This document shows, piece by piece, positions 2,217-4,429 of a DNA stretch of 64,000 bases. Origin of the DNA: an uncultured bacterium (GTDB lineage: Bacteria > Patescibacteriota > Minisyncoccia > UBA6257 > 2-01-FULL-56-20). The notes beneath the pieces are model-generated. The model saw only the letters and a list, made by a program, of their open reading frames with translations. It did no database searches and was not told the DNA's origin. Position 1 is the first letter of the stretch, and each line of letters begins with the position of its first letter. The stretch is taken from the NCBI GenBank assembly GCA_963844965.1, contig CAWJQC010000007.1, positions 224,001 through 288,000 on the forward strand, given 5' to 3'. The translations under genes were made by a program, and so were the position numbers.

Positions 2217-2317
2217 ATTTTGTCGTGGTGTTGTTTAATTATATCAAATGACGGGTGTGGGAGTTTGCCATTACAAGCAGGACCCGAGGAAAGTTTCCGC
2301 ATAGGCATTTCCATCGC

Positions 2318-2349
2318 GCGGCACGATGATTTCGTGCCGCTTTTATTTT
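2318..2349 (+). terminator. Orphan stem-loop plus T-tract (plus orientation) upstream of tRNA-Thr
   Basis: Perfect 9-bp stem GCGGCACGA/TCGTGCCGC, 5-nt loop, then TTTTATTTT. Confidence 0.4.
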
Positions 2350-2395
2350 CTTGTCTTTTATTGAAAAATTTGCTAAATTTTATACGTAAAGTTGT

Positions 2396-2468
2396 GCCAC
2401 CTTAGCTCAGCGGTAGAGCAGCACTTTCGTAAAGTGACGGTCCCGGTTCAAATCCGGGAGGTGGCTCA
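2396..2468 (+). tRNA. tRNA-Thr (anticodon CGT)
   Basis: Hand-folded cloverleaf: acceptor GCCACCT/AGGTGGC, D-arm GCTC..GAGC, anticodon loop TTCGTAA, T-arm CCCGG-TTCAAAT-CCGGG, discriminator T; CCA not encoded. Confidence 0.85.
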
Positions 2469-2598
2469 AAACCGACCGGATTTGAACGAAGGGTGGGTCG
2501 GAGGGAAAGCGGCCGGGTTCCCTCCGTGCGGGAAATTATTCAGAACCGTGGGTTCTGAAAGCGCAGCCCCGAGCTTGTCGAGGGGCGAGCAGTGAAAT

Positions 2599-2615
2599 AT
2601 CCGGGAGGTGGCTCA
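2599..2615 (+). repeat. 17-bp direct repeat of the tRNA-Thr 3' end (ATCCGGGAGGTGGCTCA; first copy 2452-2468), att-like remnant
   Basis: Exact 17-mer duplicated 147 bp downstream; a degenerate T-loop (GTGAAAT vs TTCAAAT) precedes the second copy. Confidence 0.7.
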
Positions 2616-2808
2616 GAGAAGTGGCGGGGTGAAGCGGAGCAATGCTTTTCCGCCAGAGGCGGATAAACTCCAAGCAGAGGTTGGAGGCCTGCCCCGTACA
2701 ATTGCGAAGCAATTTGTTCGGGGTTCGACTCCTCCCTGCCGGCAGGCGGGCCTGCCGGCGCAGGCGGGTCTCCGGCTCCAGAAAATAAATTTAAAATATA
2801 CGTAATTA

Positions 2809-3213
2809 ATGGGGAGAAAACGTAAAGACACTTTCAGCGGAGAACTATTTCCTGCTCCCGAGGAATCGCCTTTTGCTCCTGAAGAGATGGATAAGGCGGC
2901 GGAAGCTCTCGCGGCATCCGCCGAGGATACACCTCTCGGAGAGCCGCCGCCGGAGAACGAAGGTGATGAGTGGAGAGAAGCGCCTAAAAAAGAACCGTAT
3001 GCCTTCGGCGAGAGAATCCATAAACTGGACATGGGTCGTTTGGTGCTTTGTCCGGAATGCGGCGCTAAATTCAAAGGCAAGAGGCCGAGTATCGGGTTTG
3101 GCGAGATGAAATTCACGTGCTCGGCAGATAGCAACCACCGTTGGATTTTTGTTGCGGACAAAGATCCTGCCTCCGAGGGTGGCGTTGTCAAGAACCTGAA
3201 CGAGCAGAATTAA
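2809..3213 (+). CDS. Hypothetical acidic protein with a C-terminal CxxC..C..H zinc-ribbon-like motif
   Basis: 134-aa ORF, GGGGAG RBS 6 nt upstream; CPECG...C...H motif. Confidence 0.5.
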   Translation: MGRKRKDTFSGELFPAPEESPFAPEEMDKAAEALAASAEDTPLGEPPPENEGDEWREAPKKEPYAFGERIHKLDMGRLVLCPECGAKFKGKRPSIGFGEMKFTCSADSNHRWIFVADKDPASEGGVVKNLNEQN

Positions 3214-3252: not shown

Positions 3253-4429
3253 ATGGACTACAAACAAGAACTTCAGGAGCTTGAGGCTGAAGCCCGGCGG
3301 TTAGCCGGGCGGCTTTGACGTAGCGGGCAAGGAGCGAGAGATAGAAAAGTTGGAAGCCGAAATGTCCAGCGCAGGTTTTTGGTCGGACCGTGCGGCGGCA
3401 GACGAGAAAATAAAAACTCTTGGCGAGTTGCGTGATTTGGTTGATAAGTTTCATGTGATCGAGACCGGAATCAAAGAATTAAACGAGAAGGATATTACTC
3501 CTGCGCCTCCGAATGCCTTATCTCACGGAGTTATACCTACTCCTATTTCAAAATCTAAAGAATTAAAGGATGAGGATTTTACTTTGGTGTCTCCGGATTC
3601 CCTATCACACGGAGTTATACCCACTCCAATTTCTAAAACTTCCAAATTTTTCGAAATAAAAAAGAAACTCAGAGACCTTGAACTGACCACACTTTTTACT
3701 GGCAGGTATGACAAGCAGGCGGCCGTGCTTTCGGTGTATCCGGGCGCGGGCGGCGATGATGCCGAAGATTGGGCGCGGATGCTCGCTGAAATGTATGAAA
3801 ATTACGCCAAACGCCGCGGCTGGCAGCATAAAATGATTGACGACAATCCGCGCTCGCGAACATTTGAAGTTCGCGGCGCCTACGCTTATGGTTATCTGAA
3901 GAAAGAAGCCGGCGTTCACCGGCTCGTCAGAATTTCGCCGTTCTCGGCGAAGAAACTGCGGCACACGTCGTTCGCTTTGGTTGAGGTCGTGCCGGATCTG
4001 CCACCGGTTGAAGAGGCCAAGCTGCAAATTCCGGAAAAAGATCTGAAGCTGGAGTTTTCGCGAGCGGGCGGGCCGGGCGGCCAGAATGTGAACAAAGTGG
4101 AAACGGCGGTGCGGATAGTACACTTACCGACGGGGCTCGCCGTGAGTTCCCGCGCCGAGCGGGCGCAGGCGCAGAACCGCGAGCGGGCAATGAAACTCCT
4201 GAAGGCCAAGATATTCCAGCTGATGGAAAAGAATCAGGTGAAGGAATTGAGTGAGCTTCGGGTAAAGGTGAAACCGGAGTGGGGTAATCAGATCCGTTCT
4301 TACGTTTTGAATCCTTACCAGTTGGTGAAAGATCACAGAACCGAGGCGGAAACCGTGAGAGTTCACGAGGTTCTTGCCGGTGATTTGGACTCATTCATTG
4401 AAGCAGAGGCGGAATCCGGGCTAACTTAA
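3253..4429 (+). CDS. prfB: Peptide chain release factor 2 with a programmed +1 ribosomal frameshift (join 3253..3315, 3317..4429)
   Basis: The zero-frame [24 protein letters not shown] ends at the canonical CTT TGA C shifty stop (3313-3319) with an upstream SD-like GGGCGG. The +1 frame then continues with the SPF and GGQ motifs. Confidence 0.9.
3522..3640 (+). repeat. Imperfect tandem repeat inside the prfB N-terminal domain (two copies of [12 protein letters not shown])
   Basis: TCACGGAGTTATACC(T/C)ACTCC(T/A)ATTTC repeated about 75 bp apart; lower-GC insertion of roughly 25-30 codons relative to typical RF2 length. Confidence 0.6.

Follow-up and report, generated by a model that had tools for sequence, protein, structure and literature searches.

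The locus examined here raises the question of why the 3' end of a tRNA gene should be present twice. In a 64-kb stretch of DNA from an uncultured Patescibacteriota bacterium, referred to throughout as the window, the last 17 nucleotides (nt) of a tRNA-Thr gene recur a short distance downstream, within a hairpin-rich segment. A preliminary description of the sequence took the repeat for the scar of an integrase-mediated insertion whose element had been largely deleted, and named an unannotated structured RNA as the alternative. We found that positions 2469-2615 of the window form a complete member of an abundant, uncatalogued family of structured modules, in which every copy has a 5' segment complementary to its host gene, a covarying multi-helix core and a direct repeat of the host 3' end. 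The 17-nt repeat described first is the direct-repeat part at the 3' side of this module.

The host gene, tRNA-Thr(CGU), was identified by ARAGORN at 2396-2467 and by the Rfam model RF00005 with 64.3 bits, against a gathering score of 29. The repeated sequence, ATCCGGGAGGTGGCTCA, occurs exactly at 2452-2468 and 2599-2615 and at no further site in the 64 kb when up to three mismatches are allowed; two matches were obtained in 0 of 100 shuffles, and the duplication is not due to chance. The degenerate T-loop reported ahead of the second copy is present (GTGAAAT), and the same layout of upstream copy (X) and downstream copy (X') was also seen behind other tRNAs. No open reading frame (ORF) lies in the 130-nt interval of the window copy. 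At the 5' side of the module stands a locus-specific segment, termed the guide or rcX, where CCGGATTTGAAC is an exact reverse complement (12 of 12) of tRNA positions 2446-2457; the whole segment, 2471-2487, is an inverted copy (88% over 17 nt) of the T-loop and the 3' strand of the T-stem. The guide can pair either with the T-loop and T-stem of the tRNA or with X', in the latter case as helix P1 (2476-2483 / 2595-2604).

The structure of the family was obtained by applying RNAalifold to 10 copies, building the covariance model R1 and then aligning 92 copies. R1 has a single match in the window, at 2461-2620 with 132.9 bits, which spans the full length of the model and contains the core motifs, hairpins Pa and Pb, the guide and the repeat (E-values are rough, from a quick calibration). 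The fold of 2396-2800 is more stable than that of shuffled sequences (z = -4.07), and in its minimum free energy (MFE) form the 5' acceptor strand of the tRNA pairs with the second copy, giving a cloverleaf that carries the module inside its T-loop. The GC content of the stretch, which had been called unusually high, is raised only moderately, at 0.58-0.60 against ~0.52 in the flanks. Coordinates are collected in Table 1.

Table 1 Features of the tRNA-Thr locus, in window coordinates
Feature	Position	Strand	Basis or remarks
AT-rich stretch 5' of the tRNA, presumed promoter	2342..2395	+	By-eye alignment with loci L002, L004 and L005
Host gene, tRNA-Thr(CGU)	2396..2468	+	Acceptor stem GCCACCU/AGGUGGC; no encoded CCA; ARAGORN and Rfam RF00005
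X, upstream direct-repeat copy	2452..2468	+	T-loop end, T-stem 3' strand, acceptor 3' strand, discriminator, A; exact 17-mer
Guide (rcX), locus-specific 5' segment	2471..2487	+	Inverted repeat I1, 17 nt, 88% complementary
Conserved core	2488..2592	+	R1 match; covariation in 92-sequence alignment
GGGUCGG motif	2495-2501	+	Core
Hairpin Pa	2499-2507 / 2518-2526	+	Core
CCGU..GGA	2524-2533	+	Core
Hairpin Pb, invariant AACCG.GGGUU	2539-2547 / 2551-2559	+	Core
AGCGCAG	between Pb and Pc	+	Core
Variable hairpin Pc	about 2567-2585	+	Core
CGAGCAG	2586-2592	+	Core
X', downstream copy	2593..2615	+	Degenerate T-loop copy TGAAAT at 2593-2598, then 17-nt repeat copy at 2599-2615
Relic of a second tRNA-Thr, GCCGGAG/CUCCGGC type	2637..2781	+	Collinear tRNA positions 21-32, 37-52, 53-63 and 64-73; ends in CTCCGGCTCCA

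Comparison of the copies supports the structure. RNAalifold returned a terminal helix (P1) and the hairpins Pa and Pb, with 28 pairs of which 17 show compensatory changes. In the 92-copy alignment, whose fitting to the model favours the pairing figure, standard pairs were present in 94.2% of cells, and changes on both sides in 533 cells compared with 170 ± 13 in shuffles. When the partner was slid by 1-3 columns as a control, pairing was only 32-64%. P1 covaries in both sets, and Pa and Pb by themselves are 98-99% paired through many pair types. The core has three to four helices and the invariant motifs GGGUCGG, CCGU..GGA and AACCG.GGGUU. Two hairpins proposed from the window alone, GAGGGAA/TTCCCTC (Pa) and CAGAACC/GGTTCTG (Pb), are borne out by covariation in relatives. 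A further one, CCGACC/GGTCGG, is not kept there; the first hairpin instead has GGGUCGG as an invariant motif at its base. The structured-RNA alternative of the preliminary description holds, by covariation, for 2469-2615, while 2616-2800 is a separate feature, a decayed tRNA-Thr. We infer from the sequences that the module acts at the RNA level. No model of Rfam 15 matched the core, either in window 2470-2800 or in five further loci; in the latter Rfam reported only tRNAs and 'microRNA-like' matches that reflect one long hairpin.

Relatives of the window were taken as the DNA around homologues of release factor 2 (RF2, gene prfB), 83 loci in all, and the metagenome sample as at least 120 JGI stretches chosen by one core-motif pattern; loci are designated by L numbers. 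The figures for 77, 98, 92 and 73 modules, here and above, rest partly on the metagenome matches listed. Searches with nhmmer and the covariance model gave 13 matches in prfB-linked loci and at least 82 and at least 38 in the JGI loci, and about 130 copies, a minimum figure, were recovered from related genomes and metagenomes. Modules measure about 110-150 nt, with a core of ~100 nt. A tRNA gene on the same strand lies 7-110 nt upstream of 43 of the 77 modules, and ~18 tRNA identities serve as hosts (Thr, Gln, Arg, Leu, Met, Val, Glu, Asp, Tyr, Lys, Ile, Ala, Gly, Ser, Asn, Pro, Phe and Trp); the 3' flank then repeats 10-26 nt of the tRNA end, at times into the trailer. One module (L094) stands behind a standard tmRNA and repeats its 3' end (TCCCTGCATCTCCA). 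Protein-coding hosts are rpsI (five or six), gap (two), rplR, rpsE, mraY and others, where the module is found at the stop codon and the downstream repeat consists of the last 6-25 codons with the stop codon. Among the matches listed, the orientation is always that of the host and the position immediately 3' of the host gene end, within ~100 nt.

A direct repeat was detected in 63 of 98 evaluable modules, with a median length of 23 nt (range 13-74) and a median identity of 95%. The 5' flank complements the start of the repeat in 58 of these 63, over 8-18 nt, and the repeat begins exactly where the guide complementarity begins. In nearly all tRNA cases the 5' flank fits the upstream copy better than the downstream one. 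Behind rpsI, one long hairpin is built from the last codons, a small bulge that holds the stop codon, the hairpin of a terminator and the complementary segment. Where lineages differ synonymously in these codons, the complementary segment has changed with them, as seen in five rpsI-linked modules.

Some individual arrangements were recorded alongside. The tmRNA and module of L094 occupy 482-874 and 915-1067, true tmRNAs being detected in L094 and L118. In L166 (5710-6031, - strand) two tandem modules follow one rpsI, each with its own gene-end copy and terminator, and in L103 (5134-7956) and L111 (7203-7512) several modules lie in one ribosomal-protein operon or overlap convergently. In L021, L066 (two modules), L068, L109 and L173, X' encodes CCA though the functional tRNA gene upstream does not; window 2769-2781, the end of the tRNA-Thr relic, was grouped with these CCA-encoding tRNA-end copies. 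About 79% of the module-free tRNA genes in these loci have no encoded CCA.

The distribution of the module among relatives bears out the insertion polymorphism that the preliminary description had proposed to look for. tRNA-Thr(CGU) lies upstream of prfB in 59 of the 83 related loci, an arrangement that is old, and a module follows it in six of the 59, the window being the seventh case. In L004 (RF2 75% identity) the site is empty and the tRNA-Thr directly meets the start codon of a small gene. In L008 (RF2 68% identity) a terminator-like hairpin comes after the tRNA, and beyond it lie 145 nt homologous to window 2471-2615, which keep the 17-nt copy of the tRNA end and four hairpins, the latter by changes on both strands. 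A profile built from the window and L008 copies found the element in nine more prfB-linked loci, on either strand and behind different tRNAs. Cores that are 85-94% identical occur with unrelated flanks and hosts (tRNA-Asn, mraY and a further gene; tRNA-Thr and tRNA-Ser; tRNA-Thr and gap), and near-identical cores behind unrelated genes imply mobility. Among the matches listed, the closest relatives of the window core stand behind tRNA-Gln and tRNA-Leu (83%); the L008 core, though at the orthologous position, is less similar (75%).

The repeats appear in several states of divergence. L115 and L128 have perfect repeats of 62-87 nt; the stop codons of the two copies in L115 differ (TAA and TGA), and L128 has a 5-nt microhomology at the junction. 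Older copies have gene ends that are identical on the left side and diverge towards the right, with both stop codons kept. Between X and X' of rpsI, rplR and one further gene (L106) the changes are mostly synonymous or conservative and the stops are retained; both copies in L147 encode PQWGKR-stop with four or five synonymous differences, and the rplR pair stays in frame over 24 codons at about 30% divergence. In each case the upstream copy completes the tRNA or ORF, so that the host gene is intact. Such divergence with the frame kept fits a cassette that comes with a gene end of its own.

On this evidence the module is probably a guide-directed, ORF-less insertion cassette of structured RNA that keeps its host gene intact. 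Such a selfish cassette would enter just 5' of a sequence matching its guide and would carry or create a second host 3' end, often with a terminator, by which the interrupted gene would stay functional. Its transcript would read X, an optional terminator, the complement of X, the core and X', and could form two mutually exclusive helices: the guide with the upstream copy, as a long hairpin embedding the gene end and the terminator, or the guide with the downstream copy, as P1, closing the core. The folded core might then be a catalytic RNA, or it might serve as scaffold to a protein whose gene lies elsewhere; in either case the acting factor would recognise the junction found at the helix base.

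Several observations sit uneasily with this cassette, apart from the fitted alignment mentioned above. The model gives no account of how a new guide and repeat arise at a new target. No repeat was detectable in 35 of the 98 modules. In 30 of 73 cases the module comes after a terminator-like hairpin and would thus be transcribed only by read-through or from a promoter of its own. In L139 a block of gene end, terminator and guide stands on both sides of the core, which the model does not predict. G-U pairs exceed A-C mismatches modestly (60 and 37), which lends weak support to an RNA read from the + strand, and no enzyme or catalytic motif was found for the module. The family is one of Patescibacteria (class Paceibacteria and relatives), to which the metagenome contigs counted towards it are presumed to belong.

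The integrase scar, with attL and attR around the last 130 bp of a largely deleted island, is a highly improbable explanation. tRNA and tmRNA genes are classic integrase targets, and the likeness is considerable: the tRNA 3' end is directly repeated behind an intact tRNA, the site is polymorphic among relatives, one module lies behind tmRNA, and the two repeats of older copies agree best at their left ends, as a crossover segment would. Elements that integrate into tRNA or tmRNA genes likewise show an intact gene upstream, a displaced 3' end downstream, a functional replacement end and polymorphic presence. However, a unit of ~130 nt with constant boundaries recurs at least about 130 times with full-length scores and is therefore not a random deletion remnant; the ~130 nt of the window, rather than being what is left of something larger, are a full-length, high-scoring family copy of exactly the minimal size. 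The hosts comprise ~18 tRNA identities, tmRNA, rpsI, gap, rplR and mraY, so that no single integrase specificity explains them. Neither an integrase nor any other family that might supply a protein partner was enriched within 2.5 kb of 77 modules beyond the expected neighbours (RF2, FtsE and ribosomal proteins). The core-motif pattern had five matches in IMG/VR viral contigs, all false by the covariance model, and blastn of the window module found nothing in phage and plasmid collections. The copy 3' of the core is also without the 5' strand of the T-stem that an attR core site would keep, and the complete attR-type T-arm expected of a tyrosine-integrase core site is absent. Compared with integrative elements the module is small (about 150-250 nt), has no integrase, serves dozens of unrelated targets, protein genes included, with one core, and combines the reverse complement of its target with covarying structure of RNA type. 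An element acting at the DNA level is also very unlikely. It would consist of folded single-stranded DNA moved by a recombinase or transposase in trans (IS200/IS605-type HUH, as for PATEs and REPINs, or attC-like), or would give the guide RNA of an OMEGA-type (TnpB/IscB) or IS110-type enzyme encoded elsewhere. Like REPINs, miniature inverted-repeat transposable elements (MITEs) and PATEs, the module is short, ORF-less, multicopy, hairpin-forming and located in intergenic DNA 3' of genes; the order of scaffold and flank-derived sequence recalls the omega-RNA of TnpB, and the modest G-U excess and the microhomology in L128 would suit DNA. Those systems, however, do not produce an 8-18-nt target complement together with a 13-87-nt direct target repeat. 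REPINs, MITEs and PATEs have fixed ends and short or no target duplications, whereas the flanks of the module are re-specified per host with 13-87 nt duplicated. The omega-RNAs of TnpB and IscB, which place the scaffold before (TnpB) or after (IscB) flank-matching sequence and are tied to the persistence of mobile elements, differ in that the module has no adjacent nuclease ORF, transposon-end hairpins or Rfam omega-RNA match, and has a duplicated target with sense and antisense copies. No tnpA, tnpB or IS110 ORF was adjacent to or enriched near the 77 modules, and no IS605-orfB or HEARO match was found in Rfam; the strict orientation with host transcription also speaks against DNA, as do the invariant junction nucleotides, which suggest a tertiary RNA fold. 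Insertions that supply a replacement C-terminal end in organelle and phage genes resemble the module in that both ends keep stop codons with synonymous differences, but they encode a homing endonuclease, whereas the module is ORF-less and has tRNA and tmRNA hosts too.

A non-mobile, cis-acting 3'-end RNA element, serving in processing, stabilisation, termination or as a switch and co-evolving with its gene, with the repeats as by-products of local duplication, is unlikely. It would suit the constant co-orientation within about 100 nt of the gene 3' end, the five rpsI modules that keep the hairpin of gene end and guide by changes on both strands, the switch-like exclusive helices (X with rcX, or rcX with X') and the highly expressed hosts. 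It is opposed by the patchy occurrence at orthologous sites (6 of 59), the near-identical cores behind unrelated genes, the perfect young repeats of 62-87 nt and the tandem copies of L166, and a single regulatory logic common to tRNAs, tmRNA, ribosomal proteins and mraY is hard to see. Also unlikely is an intron-like or trans-acting ribozyme consisting of guide, catalytic core and replacement 3' exon. In one variant, a single active site would receive, by way of the guide, either the junction of gene and X or that of core and X'; splicing would then remove everything from X to the core and join the gene to X', which for a tRNA amounts to a T-loop intron. In another, the module RNA and its target RNA would swap 3' ends. 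Engineered trans-splicing group I ribozymes carry an antisense guide, a structured core and a copy of the 3' portion of the target, which is the linear order of the module, and the P1/P10 helices of natural group I introns likewise give one guide two alternative partners. The MFE fold with the module in the T-loop of a cloverleaf agrees with this reading, as do the acceptor-strand portion of X', which four diverged lineages share unchanged although it is unpaired inside the module and which survives an 80-nt insertion in L009, the frame and stop codon kept in X' copies of protein genes, and the CCA encoded by some X' where the tRNA gene has none. Group I introns, however, have a P3-P9 catalytic core and a size of at least ~200 nt, and group II introns a domain V and core of several hundred nt; the ~100-nt core is too small for either, has no P3-P9 architecture, and its guide pairs 3' of the junction and not 5'. 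No group I intron match (RF00028) was found at E ≤ 10 in window 2250-2900 or at E ≤ 1 in five other loci, and in the same window interval and loci Rfam gave none for group II introns (RF00029); hammerhead, twister, pistol, hatchet and HDV-like ribozymes were likewise without a match in the window and five loci. Splicing is also unneeded, because the upstream copy already completes the gene. In 30 of 73 cases the supposed intron would contain a terminator, and a conserved nucleotide at the two junctions was sought and not found. We nevertheless keep the ribozyme reading in view because of the layout shared with trans-splicing ribozymes and the MFE fold: it is conceivable, if improbable, that a small catalytic RNA docks by its guide on the 3' segment of a tRNA, tmRNA or mRNA, splices itself out or swaps 3' ends, and spreads and re-specifies its guide via RNA intermediates. 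Were this so, ribozymes would gain a new class, and bacteria with minimal genomes would harbour a mobile element that is programmable and independent of protein.

If the insertion cassette favoured here is correct, an abundant element has been overlooked in Patescibacteria, namely a protein-less RNA cassette whose flanks are rewritten for each host gene. It would pose the question of how an ORF-less RNA of ~100 nt targets arbitrary sequences, whether by RNA catalysis or by an enzyme in trans, and either answer would be relevant to programmable RNA-guided insertion. The family would also account for many duplicated tRNA 3' ends and pseudo-att sites, which can be misread as island scars, and for truncated duplicate gene ends 3' of rpsI, gap, mraY and others; R1 provides a means of annotating the modules. 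A full-text search of the literature found no description of the family, and a strict gapped pattern based on the DNA of the window and of L008, which was too specific, had no match in viral, metagenome and genome collections. A 2026 survey of tRNA introns in Patescibacteria reports anticodon-loop group I introns only and no group II introns (PMC13011429).

Downstream of the module, the window holds the remains of a second tRNA-Thr. The second T-arm-like motif of the preliminary description, GGTTCGACTCC at 2722-2734, is real and belongs to this decayed gene, as do the tandem GCCGGCAGGCGGG hairpins, which are not part of the module. Compared with the tRNA-Thr of L066 the relic has 49 nt in exact collinear blocks, against a maximum of 27 and a mean of 1.2 in shuffles. 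Three hairpin insertions, at 2649-2671, 2688-2723 and 2735-2768, break up these blocks, and the first of them removes the anticodon. The Rfam scan that had been suggested for the region recovered the host tRNA-Thr, and within 2470-2800 gave only a weak tRNA-Sec-like echo of 14 bits, at 2658-2740. An intact GCCGGAG-type tRNA-Thr is present in L002, L005 and L066. L005 is the mirror case of the window, with the GCCACCT-type copy broken and the GCCGGAG-type intact, and L002 is a similar mosaic. Considered together, the relic and these two loci therefore indicate that the locus once had two tandem tRNA-Thr(CGU) genes; the sequences are best read as paralogues lost differentially among lineages, with the window having kept the first.

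The broken tRNA-Thr genes of L005 (3449-3545) and L002 (52-216) lie after the shared promoter and ahead of the intact tRNA-Thr with the other acceptor; each keeps its 5' 11-13 nt and has an insertion in the D-loop. Short GC-rich hairpins (CCGCCAGAGGCGG, GTCCCGCC..GGCGGGAC and CCCCGAC..GTCGGGG) recur as loop or junction insertions in tRNA relics and modules, at the three insertion sites of the window relic and in L002 (63-216), L005 (3462-3506), L009 (about 2490-2570) and L066 (1192-1411). Possibly they represent another type of small insertion, or else an expansion segment.

Other identities were considered for the segment and set aside. The T-arm-like motifs (GGAUUYGAAC) brought to mind tmRNA, permuted tmRNA, signal recognition particle (SRP) RNA, RNase P RNA, 6S RNA and Y RNA, none of which had ARAGORN or Rfam support; for a tmRNA in the window, the acceptor stem has C3:G70 and not the alanine identity pair G3:U70. 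Reading the Pc region as a tag peptide was rejected because the hairpin varies by compensatory changes. The template and variable repeats of a diversity-generating retroelement (DGR) were dismissed, the differences not being adenine-specific and the hosts being tRNAs and ribosomal proteins. The altered T-loop copy (GUGARAU), which most tRNA-linked modules have beside the core, weakens the case for X' as a TnpB-like 3' guide.

In the window no terminator was found between tRNA-Thr and the module, so the two are probably co-transcribed. Promoter function of the AT-rich stretch 5' of the tRNA is presumed from the alignment, since a consensus sigma-70 scan found no promoter-like site, and none at TATACGTAA either. 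TATACGTAA occurs in AT-rich context at 2381-2389, 5' of the tRNA, and again at 2797-2805, just 5' of the gene for a 134-aa protein, and may be a promoter element shared by the two. Neighbouring genes encode an FAD-dependent oxidoreductase (geranylgeranyl-reductase-like by Pfam), for which an exact protein look-up gave no record, the 134-aa hypothetical protein, and prfB, ftsE and ftsX. The 134-aa protein (2809-3213) has a CxxC...C...H-like motif; it matches nothing in Pfam, and a single homologue was found for it in 5.8 billion clustered proteins. As a partner of the module it was rejected because its orthologue in L004 follows an empty site; in L004, L005 and L008 its position is held by shorter genes. 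The best-named relatives of RF2 are from Patescibacteria (Paceibacteria and 'Liptonbacteria'). The prfB gene itself (3253-4429) has a programmed +1 frameshift site, CTT TGA C, at 3313-3319, with the first 20 codons read from the ATG at 3253 and the remainder in the +1 frame, in which the ORF ends at 4429.

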